Source of the DNA: a virus | IMG/VR virus record: IMGVR_UViG_3300042698_000029 | Location: 89,127-153,126 of that record | DNA: 64,000 bases | Reading direction: 5' to 3' (one strand) | Shown here: positions 6,145-36,430 of the stretch, one piece after another | Layout: every line of letters begins with the position of its first letter | Position numbering within the stretch: the first letter of the stretch is position 1 | Made by a program: the position numbers and the translations under genes | The notes under the pieces: generated by a model | Databases searched by the model: none | What the model was told of the DNA's origin: nothing | The model's input: only the letters and a program-made list of their open reading frames with translations

Positions 6145-6345
6145 GTGTACGACCCCCTGTTCGAGCCTGCGCGCACCTTGAACACGAACTACCTCGCCGA
6201 GGCGCTCCACTCACTGCGGCAGGTCACCCCTCCCCGTCTCGAAGACCAGGCGTACGGAGCTGACGGAGTCTTCGACGTGACGTCCTACTTCGAGTCTCTT
6301 CGAAGGGAGCTCGACCGGATCGAAGACGAGTGGAAGAACCTCTGA
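6145..6345 (+). CDS. hypothetical protein (66 aa)
   Basis: GGGAG RBS, GTG start. Confidence 0.5.
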   Translation: MYDPLFEPARTLNTNYLAEALHSLRQVTPPRLEDQAYGADGVFDVTSYFESLRRELDRIEDEWKNL

Positions 6346-6428
6346 CAAGCAAACAGGGCCCCCGCTACCAACGAGGGCCCCAGATCAAGCAGTTCCCAAC
6401 CGAAGCCATCGGATAAGGAGTCTTCAGC

Positions 6429-6755
6429 ATGAACGACATCGATACCGACCGCAAGGACCGAATCACCTCCGTCGTAGACCTTCTTCAGACGCGGCATGGT
6501 GACCTCTTCAAGACCTTCCCCGTTGCCCGGCAGGCGCGGGAGGTAGTGAGTGCGGTGCAGGGTCTGATCGCCTCCGACGAAGTAATGGTCATCATCCGAC
6601 GGGTCTCCGGTGACCGGCCCAAGCAGGCAGCGGTCGCGAACGCTCTCGCCCGTGCCAAGGAGAGGGGACTCATCCACAGTCCGCGCAAGGGACTGTGGGG
6701 TGCCTCCCTGGCAGGGGGTGTGTACGGAGGAGGGTCCGACCCGACCTCCCCCTGA
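6429..6755 (+). CDS. small winged-helix-like DNA-binding protein
   Basis: AAGGAG RBS. VANALARAKERGLIHSPRKGLWG wHTH wing pattern. Confidence 0.55.
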   Translation: MNDIDTDRKDRITSVVDLLQTRHGDLFKTFPVARQAREVVSAVQGLIASDEVMVIIRRVSGDRPKQAAVANALARAKERGLIHSPRKGLWGASLAGGVYGGGSDPTSP

Positions 6756-6948
6756 CGGGGCGAGCCCGCTCCTGATGGAAGAATGACGGCAGAAAAGCGA
6801 AGGAGCCCCTGGTGTGGATCAGGGGCTCCTTCAGGTACGAACTCCCCATCCCCATGGGGTGCGCGCGATGTCACTATCAATCAGCTACCCAGAGGTTATC
6901 CGATGGGAGTGACGTCACACCACCCCGCTGTCCGGAAGGACCGGAAAA

Positions 6949-8667
6949 GTGACCGATGTCACAGCCCAGATGATCCAGGCCCGAGCCAGCCTGGAGACCG
7001 TGATGACCTCAGTGTCCCGCCTCACTGGGACCAATGGGGAAGTCGTGAGGGCCCTCACAGACCTGGTTGTCGGGGAGGCCGCATGGTTGAGCCTGCTGGA
7101 CCGGGAGGAGATCATCAGCCGCTCTCTGGAAGTCTTGCGAGAGGCCGGATGTAAGGCGTCCCGCCCTCTGGTATCCGGGGCCGTACAGACCGCCTTCAAA
7201 CTCTCCCAGAAGCGCACAGCGGTTGAGGAGCTCTACCTCGAAGCCCAGCAAGGTGACCTGCTCCCACAGATCGATCCGCAGATCTGGACCAACGAGGGCC
7301 GCTACAAGAGGTTCCTGGACTCCCTGTACCGACTCTCCCTGTACCGCCGGGCGCGGCCTGAGTCGGTGCTGGGGTGCTTCGCCGTTCACAGCCTCTGCCT
7401 GATCCCTCCACACACAAGGGTGGAGACGGACGGCAGCGAGAACGCGCTCAACGCTCTGAGCGCGGTGGTGGGCCAGACCGGCAAGGGCAAGGGCAACGTC
7501 CAGGGGTGCACGGACGTCGTTCTCAAGCCATTGATCCAGCAGTCCGTTCCCGGAAAGAACGAACGGGGAGGGATCCGCCGCGCAGCGGGAGTGGCCTCGG
7601 GTGAAGCGATCATCGACCAGTTCTCAGGCAGCTGGGAAGACGATGACGACATCATGGCCGCCGACGAGGATGGAAGGGTCTCTGGGCAGAAGTGGGACGC
7701 CGTTCTCCTGGTCATCGATGAGATGAAGTCCCTGCTGGCCACCATGGACCGGTCGGGCTCCACCACCGACAGCACCCTCACAAGCCTTCTCACCGGAGGC
7801 GACGTGACCTCTCAGAAAGCCGATGTGACGGGCAACGGCGGAGGAAGGGTGACGCTGACGGGAGGCGAATACCGGTTCTGCGGGTCAGGAGGCCTTCAGC
7901 CGGAGTTCTTGGACAGACTGGCGAAGACCGGCGGCATCGGCTTGGTCAAGCGCATCCTGAAGCTGCCCGCCGGGATGCATCCCGACCAGATCCACGCACG
8001 GAAGGTTCTCGTAGAGGGCGGCTACGGTCGCTCAGAGGCCGAAGAGGACGCGGCCCTTCTCCGTTCATCGCTCCACGGCCTGCGCGAGAACGGGACCGTC
8101 ACGGTGGCCCGCTCCATCCAGGAAGTCATCGACAAGATCGCTGATGCTTCTGTCGAGGATCGGGGCTTCAGCGAAGTAGACCCAGCCGGACAGGGTCTCC
8201 ACCTCCGCATCGTTCTCGCGGCCTTCTTCGCCCGTCTGTCCTCTCTGTGGGAGATCGATCGTGACGCCTGGACCATGTCCGGGTACCTCATGAGCTTGGA
8301 CGAGGCGATGCACAGGCACATCCTCGGGTACGTGGGAGAGGTCGAGCAGGACGAGCGGGCCCGAGAGATCGGGGAGTACACGTCCAAGACGGTCTCGGTG
8401 AAGACCAAGGAGACCTGGGAGTCCACGGGCTCGACGCCGGTCCTGGACAGGGCCATGGGGAAGATCCTGGAGTTCATGTACAACGCGGGTGGGGAGCACA
8501 CGGCCACCGACGTCCGGGACAAGTCAGGAGCCAACAGTTCTACTCAGGCCGCTCACAAGGGTGTGACCGGGAAGCAGCTCCACGTTCATGCCTTGGAGCG
8601 GATGGTCATGTCGGGCGCGGTGAAGAAGGTGGGCCGGAAGTTCGTTGCTACTCGGAAGACCCTGTAG
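6949..8667 (+). CDS. Rep-like P-loop ATPase/helicase (DUF3987/YfjI-like) with C-terminal winged helix
   Basis: AVVGQTGKGKG Walker A, SGEAI, LLVIDEM Walker B, GGLQP and KRIL motifs, C-terminal wHTH. Followed by an iteron-like array. Confidence 0.7.
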   Translation: MTDVTAQMIQARASLETVMTSVSRLTGTNGEVVRALTDLVVGEAAWLSLLDREEIISRSLEVLREAGCKASRPLVSGAVQTAFKLSQKRTAVEELYLEAQQGDLLPQIDPQIWTNEGRYKRFLDSLYRLSLYRRARPESVLGCFAVHSLCLIPPHTRVETDGSENALNALSAVVGQTGKGKGNVQGCTDVVLKPLIQQSVPGKNERGGIRRAAGVASGEAIIDQFSGSWEDDDDIMAADEDGRVSGQKWDAVLLVIDEMKSLLATMDRSGSTTDSTLTSLLTGGDVTSQKADVTGNGGGRVTLTGGEYRFCGSGGLQPEFLDRLAKTGGIGLVKRILKLPAGMHPDQIHARKVLVEGGYGRSEAEEDAALLRSSLHGLRENGTVTVARSIQEVIDKIADASVEDRGFSEVDPAGQGLHLRIVLAAFFARLSSLWEIDRDAWTMSGYLMSLDEAMHRHILGYVGEVEQDERAREIGEYTSKTVSVKTKETWESTGSTPVLDRAMGKILEFMYNAGGEHTATDVRDKSGANSSTQAAHKGVTGKQLHVHALERMVMSGAVKKVGRKFVATRKTL

Positions 8668-33731: not shown

Positions 33732-33836
33732 GACTTCCTCCTCAGAAACAGGTCCGGGCGGACCTCCTGGTTAAAGGATGTCCGCCCGAGGGAAAACCCA
33801 AAAGAGTTTTGAGGAAGTTCAGAGCTTTCTTAGAAG

Positions 33837-33909
33837 TGAATCCGGTCGGACTCGAACCGACGACACGGTGGTTAAGAGCCACCTGCTCTTCCAACTGAGC
33901 TACGGATCC
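33837..33909 (-). tRNA. tRNA-Lys(CUU)
   Basis: Full cloverleaf, anticodon arm GGTGG-CTCTTAA-CCACC, T loop TTCGAGT. Confidence 0.92.
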
Positions 33910-33948: not shown

Positions 33949-34022
33949 TGAAGAGAGACGGACTCGAACCGTCATCCTTCGGCACCATAGGGCCGACGCG
34001 CTACCAATTGCGCTATCTCAAA
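33949..34022 (-). ncRNA. degenerate tRNA-like RNA (8-nt anticodon loop, only 4-bp acceptor pairing)
   Basis: Intact D arm GCGC-AATTGGTA-GCGC, stem TCGGC/GCCGA with loop CCTATGGT, T arm GACGG-TTCGAGT-CCGTC. Confidence 0.7.
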
Positions 34023-34347
34023 GGGGTTCCGTTCACGGTCCTGCACAGGCGGACGGGGTTCAGCTTCAAGAGGCATGCGCTCTGCCATTGAGCCACCCGG
34101 GATCGGAGTCCCCGGGGCCGGATTCGAACCGGCATCTCACACCAGCAGACCCATCACGGTAGATCAGGACGCCGACGGTTTGTCTGAGCCTGGAGCGAGA
34201 ACATCAGCTTCAACGGGCTTTGAGATTCCCGTGAGAACTTCAGCAATCATCTTCAGTTTTCGCCCTCAGGGCGACCCGTGCGCTCAGTCACGGGAGTCTT
34301 GGAACGGTCCCAGGAGGGGTAGGGACCGTTGTGGGGATCACCTTACC
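34023..34347 (-). ncRNA. structured ncRNA containing a circularly permuted tRNA-like module (core 34072-34143)
   Basis: Order on the minus strand is GGTGTG-AGAT, T arm GCCGG-TTCGAAT-CCGGC, CCCGGGG-A-CTCCGA-TCCCGGG, TG-GCTC-AATGGCA-GAGC-G-CATGCC. Four upstream hairpins and four TGAAG motifs. Confidence 0.75.
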
Positions 34348-35088
34348 TCATGAACCGAGAAGGTGCCGGAAGATGTTCGCGCCGACGGTGACCTGTTCCA
34401 CTTCCATGGAGTTGGCCTCCTCGCGGGCACGCTTGACGGCGTCCGACATGGCGTCGATACGGGCGACGATCTCCGCTCGGCGTTCACGGGGGAGGGCACC
34501 TGAGAACTTGGTCGTCTCCCAGTAGCCCGCGTTCTTGTCCACGGAGATGACCTCGGTCTGCGCCGGGTGCTTGTCGGTCGCCGGGTACTTCACCAGGACC
34601 GACTGCTCCTTGCGGTTGCGGACGGTCTTTACCGGAGCCGTACGGAAGCCTCCGTTTTCGGCGTCCGGGGTCCACAGCTCCGCCGGGTCGAGGACCGGTG
34701 CCTTGGAGACCACGGTCCGCAGGTCGGTGAGCTGCTTCTCCAGGAAGAGCAGGTAGGGGACCGGCAGCTCGGGCGTGATGGCCTGGCCGTCCAGCACCAC
34801 AGCGGCGCGGGCGCTCATGTTCGCGGTCTCCTTGGTGGCCACCACGTCGAAGAGCTCGGTGAGATGCTTCGCGACGTCGGCCAGCATGAACTCGACGTTC
34901 TTCTGAACCAGCGTGGACTCCGGCGGCAGCTCGTCCCCACCGTCTTCGATCGGCGTGTACTTGCGGGAGAGGCCGCTGAAAAGCGGGGCCTTCTGGAGGC
35001 CGTGGTAGATCTCGGTCACCGCGTGCGAGGTGCGGGCCTGAAGACCCTTCTGTACGGCGACGATCTGACAGAGCTTCGGTGCGGTCAC
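34348..35088 (-). CDS. conserved-looking coiled-coil protein (246 aa) embedded in the tRNA array
   Basis: GAAGGA RBS + GTG at 35088. KLCQIVAV, LPVPYLLFLEKQLTDL, ATDKHPAQ, TKFSGALP and AVKRAREEAN motifs. The upstream ORF extension is a tRNA-like sequence. Confidence 0.85.
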   Translation of the reverse strand: MTAPKLCQIVAVQKGLQARTSHAVTEIYHGLQKAPLFSGLSRKYTPIEDGGDELPPESTLVQKNVEFMLADVAKHLTELFDVVATKETANMSARAAVVLDGQAITPELPVPYLLFLEKQLTDLRTVVSKAPVLDPAELWTPDAENGGFRTAPVKTVRNRKEQSVLVKYPATDKHPAQTEVISVDKNAGYWETTKFSGALPRERRAEIVARIDAMSDAVKRAREEANSMEVEQVTVGANIFRHLLGS

Positions 35089-35119: not shown

Positions 35120-35238
35120 TGGGAAGAGTGGGATTCGAACCCACGATTTCCGCTGACACGCAGACGTTGCCTAGGTCGACTGCATAGACGGATCAACCGG
35201 ATTTCGTCCGGCCCCATAAGCCACTCGGGCATCTTCCC
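35120..35238 (-). ncRNA. tRNA-like RNA with a 5-nt anticodon loop and ~50-nt variable arm (Ser(CGA)-derived?)
   Basis: GGGAAGA/TCTTCCC acceptor, class II-like D arm, CCGGA-CGAAA-TCCGG, T arm GTGGG-TTCGAAT-CCCAC. 119 nt. Confidence 0.75.
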
Positions 35239-36356: not shown

Positions 36357-36430
36357 TAGGTGGGGTGGGATTCGAACCCACACATTGCATCCGTTATCCG
36401 GCCGTCTCTGCGCGATTGGACTACCCACCT
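36357..36430 (-). ncRNA. tRNA-like RNA with a collapsed anticodon arm (loop GATAA, Ile-derived?)
   Basis: Perfect AGGTGGG/CCCACCT acceptor and GTGGG-TTCGAAT-CCCAC T arm. Anticodon arm reduced to CCG-GATAA-CGG. Confidence 0.7.

Follow-up and report, generated by a model that had tools for sequence, protein, structure and literature searches.

A DUF7873 gene and a downstream RNA with circularly permuted tRNA-like heads form a conserved pair across sampled phage and bacterial loci

Y RNAs have so far been defined by their partnership with Ro60, and the bacterial YrlA RNAs together with Ro60/Rsr (Chen et al. 2014, PMC4201824; Wang et al. 2018, bioRxiv 10.1101/312249) are the closest known system to the locus described here. 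YrlA is expected within ~4 kb of an rsr (TROVE) gene, and GNCGAAN0-1G has been proposed as the 5' motif for recognition by Ro60/Rsr (PMC4201824). In Mycobacterium smegmatis, YrlA is reported to be cut by RNase P and to gain CCA in vivo, for which its 7-bp acceptor stem is named as the likely reason (PMC4201824). The present locus lies in a stretch of 64,000 nucleotides of viral DNA (IMG/VR record IMGVR_UViG_3300042698_000029, positions 89,127 to 153,126), which is called the window throughout. It consists of a gene of the DUF7873 family that is followed, on the minus strand, by a structured RNA with a circularly permuted tRNA-like head. In this case, an equally tight link joins the inside-out tRNA design to a different, uncharacterized protein, and the DUF7873-linked RNA does not have an rsr gene within that distance. 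Gene and RNA probably make up a two-part unit that is a Ro60-independent relative of the bacterial Y RNA particles.

The gene product is a full-length DUF7873 protein (Pfam PF25283, E 6.3e-92), which is illustrated both by its whole-protein score (308.1 bits, curated cut-off 27 bits) and by its coverage of the profile (positions 2-242 of 244). Among the loci sampled, DUF7873 and the RNA are a conserved, near one-to-one pair. The sample is composed of the 80 best matches per scan with at least 40% identity to a query, and comprises 80 bacterial loci (titled Streptomyces, Nonomuraea, Micromonospora, Catenulispora, Nocardia, Ktedonobacterales, and others) and 80 viral loci. A strict head pattern, which requires a 5-bp T stem, a UUCRANN loop, a 7/7 acceptor closed by a 3-15-nt loop, and a D arm, is matched at most 600 nt downstream on the same strand in 139 of the 160 loci. 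Two matches occur in 77 loci, and 15 further matches are spread over the rest of the 3.78 Mb scanned. R1, a covariance model of the 3' domain with 154 positions and 37 base pairs, detects a full-length copy after the gene in all 80 bacterial loci, in 74 of the 80 viral loci, and in 38 of 41 viral loci outside the training set. A full-length copy also accompanies the divergent, frameshifted, or truncated DUF7873 copies of Streptomyces (6/6). Nine viral loci are without a full-length match; two of them are cut by contig ends and five give weak matches at the expected place (L110, L150, L184, L205, and L249). In the window, R1 scores 108.5 bits (E 3.8e-28, model positions 1-154), and the match is the sole full-length copy in the phage genome. 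There is some circularity in this score, as the training alignment included the window, but its helices are also legible in the sequence itself.

The pairing also holds on the scale of whole genomes. In 36 bacterial genomes of 5.5-13 Mb, one DUF7873 gene is present in each, and full-length R1 matches lie only downstream of the gene on the same strand, with a gene-RNA gap of 150-400 nt in ten pairs compared. One genome (G032) harbors two R1 copies, 1-1.6 kb from DUF7873. The other weak partial matches in the genomes fall on the first head of the same locus, on tandem tRNA genes, or on RNAs adjoining TROVE. An earlier note on this DNA had proposed the gene and its downstream permuted-tRNA RNA as a candidate ribonucleoprotein system with a non-Ro partner, and both the downstream RNA of the homologs and the pairing changes in its permuted stems are borne out by these counts and by the alignments.

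The two R1 copies of G032 belong to a locus of a Ktedonobacterales metagenome-assembled genome (L010), in which tandem full-length 3'-domain copies (6330-6493 and 6895-7050, 105 and 101 bits) are joined by more heads. It is an expanded version of the RNA locus.

In the alignments, the family RNA takes on a length of ~330-390 nt and is divided into two domains. The 5' domain starts with a variable G+C-rich hairpin, which is followed by a UGCGC-GAGGA-GCGCA hairpin, the hexamer repeats, a first permuted head (M1), and a UCAG-hexamer strand that carries UCUCGCUCCAG. The repeats follow the consensus GCUGAN in 3-4 copies, and a 6-nt CUGA periodicity is visible in the aligned blocks of most family members. 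The strict pattern finds M1 in 77 of the 160 loci, and the model finds it in more of them. The 3' domain is constructed from helix Pb, an AUCGA bulge, helix Pc, the anticodon-type stem with the second head (M2), an internal loop UGA-N3-4-CUGA, and a CUUAAACGCC motif, with the head seated on three stacked helices.

The pairing of the 3' domain is strongly conserved. In 66 sequences, 89.9% of the pair cells are paired, compared to 63.2% after shuffling and ~43% with slid partners, and the covariation score is 0.714 compared to 0.225 for the shuffled alignment. For the T arm, acceptor, and D arm, the values are too high, as those pairs were a condition of the selection pattern. Pb and Pc, which played no part in sequence selection, are paired in 92.7% and 86.9% of their cells, and two-sided changes are found at all 15 pairs. 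In the 5' domain, minimum-energy folds of seven bacterial members pair the GCUGAN strand with the UCAG strand in short helices with small loops, leaving UCUCGC bulged, and the outermost helix shows a compensatory switch from GCUGA/UCAGC to GCUCA/UGAGC in the L146 group. By these folds, the UCAG strand facing the repeats may pair with them, and the hexamer repeats may form a duplex, a protein-binding array, or both. Rfam 15 contains no family for this RNA and returns sub-threshold YrlA matches only. It is almost certainly a real RNA family that is distinct from the rsr-linked YrlA.

The RNA is very probably functionally coupled to DUF7873. It could nevertheless act without binding the protein, either as a cis element at the 3' end of the DUF7873 mRNA (stabilizer, processing site, or regulator) or as a free-standing tRNA mimic that only accompanies the gene. 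Such a role is in line with its usual start on the same strand, 30-100 nt past the stop codon, with the window, where no promoter-like site is seen, and with a protein that is acidic overall and has no known RNA-binding fold. The RNA is, however, more than a 3' untranslated region because it lies on the opposite strand in one viral contig and more than 500 nt from the gene in three loci (L089, L093, and L160). In the former (L122, 7938-8091, minus strand, 118.8 bits), it is located ~1.2 kb from the gene and therefore can be its own transcription unit. The RNA is also kept beside frameshifted and truncated genes, whole genomes hold full-length copies only beside the gene, and 300-390 covarying nucleotides with tRNA-type tertiary-contact positions far exceed the needs of a stabilizer. 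An RNA that acts without contacting DUF7873 is thus unlikely.

Ro60 is not part of the DUF7873-RNA pair. TROVE is absent from the window, as the earlier note had seen, and likewise from the complete 153,126-bp phage genome and from a second phage genome (98% complete). Among the 36 bacterial carriers, TROVE is found in 17, always at a separate locus, and is not detectable in 19. A separate tRNA-like RNA adjoins TROVE in three of these genomes (G006, G020, and G025). On the TROVE-adjacent RNAs of G006 and G025, which match Rfam YrlA at 43-54 bits, R1 recovers the tRNA-like core only and not Pb/Pc; the RNA of G020 reaches just 47 bits. Two RNA classes therefore coexist, and they differ outside of the head.

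The YrlA-type topology that had been recognized in the window is confirmed by direct reading and by Rfam YrlA (RF02553), which matches 34079-34136 on the minus strand over model positions 28-81 of 114 (30.5 bits, E 8e-4 in a 4-kb search). The score lies below the gathering threshold of 69 bits and covers half of the model; relatives score 35-50 bits, and one of them matches the whole model at 49.6 bits. The test by gathering score is weak because actinobacterial YrlA candidates beside TROVE also remain under the Rfam cut-off with just 43-54 bits. GNCGAAN0-1G is absent from the window RNA and shows no enrichment in the family (44 of 157 RNA regions, compared to 48 of 159 control windows). The view that the RNA is not plain YrlA is upheld by both the score and the missing motif.

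A phage could still supply an ordinary YrlA-type Y RNA to the Ro60 (Rsr) of its host, with DUF7873 as a mere neighbor. The exact YrlA order of the head, the partial Rfam match of the window, the whole-model match of its relative, and the TROVE found in about half of the bacterial carriers speak for this proposal, and a low score alone does not exclude it, given that the candidates beside TROVE also score below the cut-off. It is difficult to reconcile with the 19 carriers without detectable TROVE, with the separate TROVE loci of the others and the YrlA-like RNAs of their own in the three examined, with the restriction of R1 to the core of those RNAs, with the missing recognition motif, and with the near-total linkage to DUF7873 in both directions. 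It is rated very unlikely.

Beside TROVE, one to two YrlA-like RNAs with 31-54 bits are situated just upstream of the gene in two of the genomes (L257, G006:C6:139500-142000; L258, G025:C6:100000-102500). The Rfam threshold seems to lead to under-detection of rsr-linked Y RNAs in actinobacteria.

The AlphaFold2 model of the DUF7873 protein has a mean predicted local distance difference test score (pLDDT) of 93.4 and consists of a bundle of long helices and a long β-hairpin (residues 153-192). The label "coiled-coil" that had been given to the protein is loose in view of this fold. The tip of the β-hairpin, ATDKHPAQ, is nearly invariant in DUF7873. The segment 148-192 has a net charge of +2 to +3, and the body of about -4. 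DUF7873 is predicted to be a homodimer: the two-copy model reaches an ipSAE (interaction prediction score from aligned errors) of 0.72 compared to 0.00 for the best control, three runs share at least 96% of the contacts, and the pLDDT of the partner is at least 88. The model thereby passes the mark of the dimer tool, which in calibration 20 of 30 proteins with a solved one-chain pair attained, compared to one of 23 solved as single chains; these counts are only rough here because an own alignment was supplied. The open oligomer that had been envisaged on the repeats is at odds with this predicted homodimer.

No solved or predicted structure of known function resembles the DUF7873 model in the searches made. 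Foldseek gives nothing in the PDB at E 0.001 or better, and VIA-align gives 3kdq with a Z of 9.2 but a root-mean-square deviation of 7.9 Å, and otherwise generic helical hairpins only. The ESM Atlas returns the DUF7873 family itself and unnamed phage proteins with template modeling scores of 0.44-0.61. A feature search of the Atlas finds nothing at 0.9 or above, and a profile search of PDB sequences finds nothing. Fused or longer forms of DUF7873 were not found, which is weak evidence. PHROGs contains no match for the window protein, the phage nucleotide database holds no near match to the locus, and an identical 246-aa protein is present in the protein collection (P0001).

More than 5,600 DUF7873 homologs were found, and the architecture of the pair is kept across ~240 loci from phages and from bacterial genomes with an Actinomycetota or Chloroflexota annotation. 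Of 151 Streptomyces species genomes, 80 (53%) carry DUF7873, usually once and at varied chromosomal places, and the gene is therefore accessory. The neighbors are not conserved in two bacterial loci compared. The unit is common in phages, including many large ones, and in prophage-like regions, and 34 of the 80 viral loci harbor at least two tRNA genes within 3 kb, of which 250 of 252 are on the same strand. One phage array (L121, 3375-3903 and surroundings) combines the DUF7873 unit with more than 25 tRNA genes and a gene for transfer-messenger RNA (tmRNA, 90.3 bits). This distribution is the pattern of an accessory, mobile unit. In the literature, no paper was found on DUF7873 or the pair, and nothing relevant on YrlA combined with Streptomyces or on permuted tRNA combined with phage.

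The selfish, patchy, and mobile spread would also fit a toxin-antitoxin-like pair in the style of type III systems, in which the RNA restrains a harmful protein or the reverse. Compact two-part build, presence in about half of the sampled Streptomyces species without conserved neighbors, frequency in phages and prophage-like regions, and the short tandem repeats of the RNA are points for such a pair, and broken DUF7873 genes that keep an intact RNA are neutral toward it. In type III systems such as ToxIN, the toxin gene comes after tandem repeat units. The order of gene and RNA and the presence of one long RNA set the present pair apart from the known systems, and neither Pfam, PHROGs, nor the fold searches reveal a nuclease or other toxin signature in DUF7873, so that this explanation has little probability. 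All rival explanations are rated below the Ro60-independent two-part unit.

The two-part unit is probably an undescribed RNA-protein particle in which the DUF7873 dimer would bind the RNA, because the pair follows nearly every relative without Ro60. The homodimer would bind the conserved parts outside of the tRNA-like heads, namely Pb/Pc and the helix of the hexamer repeats, in which UCUCGCUCC is bulged, and the ATDKHPAQ tip of the protruding, positively charged β-hairpin would be the likely RNA contact. The particle would display one head in the window phage, or two in most relatives, and thereby present the shape of a tRNA elbow and acceptor to tRNA-recognizing enzymes. RNase P may open a head, which might then receive a CCA end in the manner reported for the YrlA of M. 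smegmatis. In the weakest step of the proposal, the particle might serve as a decoy or tether for factors whose target is the acceptor or elbow of tRNA.

A role in the conflict between phage and host over tRNA is suggested by the scattered occurrence, the absence of fixed neighbors, and the place in phage tRNA arrays; it is put forward here as a tentative and rather unlikely option. It is similarly doubtful that a widespread DUF7873-RNA particle soaks up or tethers, e.g., defense toxins that modify tRNA 3' ends; such an activity would explain why phages carry the unit inside of their tRNA arrays. If the particle exists, the use of tRNA mimicry in RNA-protein machines would extend beyond the Ro60 system, the more than 5,600 homologs of a Pfam family would gain a first functional handle, and phage tRNA arrays would gain a new content class beyond tRNAs and tmRNA.

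Several points weigh against the particle. The putative physical binding between DUF7873 and the RNA is read from synteny only, the protein as a whole is mildly acidic (median isoelectric point 6.1), and Pfam and fold searches recognize no RNA-binding fold or motif in it. Remote DUF7873 relatives fall outside of a sample that is restricted to the best 80 matches per scan with at least 40% identity, and two related viral loci (L119 and L120) have no RNA that is detectable in the R1 scan. The putative pairing of the hexamer repeats is not recovered by RNAalifold, which yields no long-range helix on the MAFFT alignment of the 5' domain, and the repeat registers shift between members. The window copy has neither the first head nor the CUUAAACGCC motif, and neither can therefore be essential. 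Its acceptor loop is without CCA and is accompanied by an A at position -1 and a U-G first pair, which makes tRNA-like processing less likely here than in the relatives.

In the family as a whole, the acceptor-closing loop has the look of a 3' trailer joined to a 5' leader because it starts with N-CCA in about a third of the members and usually ends in C-R-U. A discriminator followed by CCA opens the loop in 34 of 94 distinct M2 heads and in 30 of 105 distinct M1 heads, with an estimated chance level of ~2%. The remaining loops mostly begin with N-C-U-N, and the loops mostly end in C-R-U. The closed 7-bp acceptor stem is shared with the M. smegmatis YrlA; all DUF7873-linked heads found have 7 bp, as the search pattern required. 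The window loop differs in the lack of CCA, and processing of DUF7873-linked RNA is proposed by analogy. On that analogy, it is possible, without being favored, that the heads are presented to the tRNA machinery and perhaps processed by it.

Tandem tRNA genes can imitate the head. Two tRNA-Asn(GUU) genes 4 nt apart (L256, G029:C1:6217500-6218000) score 51.6 bits with R1 and 38.4 bits with Rfam YrlA, and a dozen other genomes with Streptomyces-titled loci show R1 matches of identical score and length. This pair is a concrete case of the "dimeric tRNA" false positives of which Chen et al. 2014 (PMC4201824) warned. That the RNA itself is a true permuted tRNA gene or a decayed tandem-tRNA junction without a function of its own has next to no probability, since, for all that such tandem pairs give the pattern, that the locus lies inside a tRNA array, and that the N-CCA loop starts point to descent from tRNA genes, the head has no anticodon loop and its stem continues into covarying Pc and Pb, neither a 5' half upstream nor a 3' half downstream is present, ARAGORN makes no call, and the architecture is conserved across ~240 loci.

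Two alternative folds of the family RNA were rejected. A normal-order tRNA fold of the 5' domain, which ARAGORN calls at +28 to +124 in 28 of the 80 bacterial loci, was discarded because the leader pairs no better with the M1 acceptor strand than with the strands of other loci (17 perfect sites, compared to 14.2 expected). The call, a 90-nt "tRNA" (Phe-GAA or Ala-AGC) in L016-L045 and others, spans the leader hairpins and the M1 T arm. It is probably an artifact of similar G+C-rich stems, and annotation pipelines might list it as a tRNA gene. A single tRNA with a giant insert, made from the 5' strand of M1 and the 3' strand of M2, was judged by eye: agreement is confined to the conserved end pairs and does not extend to the variable middle.

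The elements of the window RNA and the neighboring genes are collected in Table 1. All elements of the permuted tRNA module are present as the earlier note had listed them. The 325 nt after the stop codon (34023-34347) contain no minus-strand open reading frame of at least 50 aa, which agrees with the earlier reading of this segment as free of a credible same-strand open reading frame.

Table 1. Features of the DUF7873-RNA locus in the window
Feature	Position	Strand	Sequence or remark
DUF7873 gene	34348..35088	minus	246 aa; GTG start 35088; GAAGGA 8 nt upstream; stop TGA 34350-34348
Whole structured RNA	34029..34330	minus	Ends approximate; 5' domain without tRNA-like head and 3' domain with one
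Hairpin H0	34303..34330	minus	AACGGUCCC/GGGACCGUU, 10-nt loop; shortly after stop codon; read from sequence
Hairpin H1	34275-34294	minus	CCCGUG/CACGGG; the family's variable G+C-rich hairpin
Hairpin H2	34260-34274	minus	UCGCCC-UGA-GGGCGA; the family's conserved UGCGC-GAGGA-GCGCA hairpin
Hexamer-repeat strand	34233..34257	minus	ACUGAAGAUGAUUGCUGAAGUUCUC; family consensus GCUGAA-GCUGAA-GCU...; contains two UGAAG copies
Hairpin H3	34213..34232	minus	ACGGG-AAUCUCAAAG-CCCGU; occupies site of first permuted head (M1) in most relatives
Conserved strand	34182..34212	minus	UGAAGCUGAUGUUCUCGCUCCAGGCUCAGAC; contains UCUCGCUCCAG, the family's most conserved single-stranded motif
3' domain	34029..34178	minus	Outer helices Pa, Pb, and Pc enclose tRNA-like head
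Helix Pa	34175-34178 with 34029-34032	minus	CCGU with ACGG
Helix Pb	34165-34170 with 34038-34043	minus	GUCCUG with CAGGAC
Helix Pc	34150-34157 with 34049-34057	minus	GUGAUGGG with CCCGUCCGC; one bulged base
Internal loop	34059-34071	minus	UCUUGAAGCUGAA; 3' domain
Circularly permuted tRNA-like head M2	34072..34143	minus	T arm, loop-closed 7-bp acceptor, D arm, anticodon-type stem
M2 anticodon-type stem	34138-34143 with 34072-34077	minus	GGUGUG with CAUGCC; opens into internal loop, then Pc and Pb
M2 AGAU	34134-34137	minus	
M2 T arm	34117-34133	minus	GCCGG-UUCGAAU-CCGGC
M2 acceptor hairpin	34096-34116	minus	CCCGGGG 34110-34116, loop ACUCCGA 34103-34109, UCCCGGG 34096-34102
M2 UG	34094-34095	minus	
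M2 D arm	34079-34093	minus	GCUC-AAUGGCA-GAGC; G between D arm and CAUGCC
tRNA-like gene	33949-34022	minus	8-nt anticodon loop (CCUAUGGU); begins 7 nt after RNA
tRNA-Lys(CUU)	33836-33909	minus	Next after tRNA-like gene
tRNA gene with 56-nt insert	35120..35238	minus	Ends 32 nt before DUF7873 start

The window RNA is a reduced variant that characterizes its clade. The layout of the window recurs in four related phage contigs (protein identity 66-86%), which keep its RNA element by element. In this clade, M1 is replaced by the plain hairpin H3, and M1 is detected neither by the strict pattern nor by the model in the window or its clade. M1-position heads are also missing from many Streptomyces loci. 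The CUUAAACGCC motif between Pc and Pb is likewise missing from the clade, and GCCUGUG stands there in the window. Pa, Pb, Pc, and M2 are retained with compensatory exchanges, among them G-C for C-G in the L167 T stem and U-A for C-G in the L165 acceptor. H0 is retained with changes on both strands in L165 and L166 and lies outside of the family consensus. All four hairpins that had been described are present; they belong to the 5' domain of the same RNA in its head-less form, and the clade alignment shows H3 in the place of M1.

The repeated motifs that had been listed for the segment occur where they were placed and above chance. UGAAG is found on the minus strand at 34064, 34208, 34238, and 34251, with ~0.5 copies expected per 325 nt of one strand (from 189 copies on both strands of the window), and is the local form of the family-wide GCUGAN hexamers. 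The 10-mer UUGAAGCUGA on both sides of the tRNA module occurs only at 34060-34069 and 34204-34213 in the window; 0.06 copies are expected, and none of 100 shuffles reaches two.

The window makes up the right-hand 64 kb of a phage genome that is complete and has direct terminal repeats. The tRNA and tRNA-like gene array runs on the minus strand from 37576 down to 33836 and embeds the DUF7873 gene as its single protein gene. In the clade, a tRNA-like gene follows the RNA after a 7-nt gap and is itself followed by a tRNA gene, which is tRNA-Lys in the window, and neither a sigma-70-like promoter nor an intrinsic terminator was found at the window RNA. The phage RNA is probably freed from the transcript of the tRNA array by the enzymes that also process the tRNAs, since the tRNA-like gene and the tRNA follow at such short distance and promoter- or terminator-like sites are lacking.

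Some genes of the array are unusual themselves. The tRNA-like gene at 33949-34022, which ARAGORN labels "tRNA-???", has just four clean acceptor pairs with a CCCC/GGGG extension past an internal loop. It is kept in the phage contigs L164 and L166, and the same site in L167 is a tRNA-Asn(AUU) with a 7-nt loop. At 35120-35238 (43.1 bits as a tRNA, no ARAGORN call), the insert splits the halves of the anticodon stem; the matching position in L164 holds a 91-nt tRNA-Tyr(GUA). A weak tRNA match at 36357-36430 on the minus strand (36.3 bits) has the acceptor and T arm without a D arm and may be a decayed or unusual tRNA of the array.

Three known designs resemble the DUF7873-linked RNA to different extents. 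Permuted tRNA genes of Cyanidioschyzon merolae and some archaea also encode the 3' half before the 5' half and join them across the acceptor ends. These genes keep an anticodon loop and mature to normal tRNAs via a circular intermediate. The window RNA differs in that it is without an anticodon loop, as the GGUGUG/CAUGCC stem opens into Pc/Pb, and ARAGORN makes no tRNA call at M2.

tmRNA with SmpB is comparable in its partial tRNA mimic of T arm and acceptor, in the single small dedicated protein, and in its occurrence in phage tRNA arrays. The acceptor of tmRNA is, however, open and chargeable and is combined with a coding part, whereas the acceptor here is closed by a loop and no tag reading frame is present. 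Pfam finds no match between DUF7873 and SmpB.

YrlA remains the nearest relative. Both RNAs share the permuted order of variable region, T arm, loop-closed acceptor, and D arm, with the anticodon-type stem opening into the remaining RNA, and both keep the tRNA-type nucleotides of the T-loop and D-loop. Both are situated beside a dedicated protein gene, often have two tandem copies or heads, and occur in bacteria and phages. The differences start with the partner gene, which is DUF7873 instead of TROVE, and with the absence of GNCGAAN0-1G. The DUF7873-linked RNA is 300-390 nt long compared to the 80-130 nt given for Y RNAs, and it additionally harbors Pb, Pc, AUCGA, CUUAAACGCC, and the hexamer repeats, which the rsr-linked RNAs do not match. 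Genomes that encode both proteins keep two separate RNA loci.

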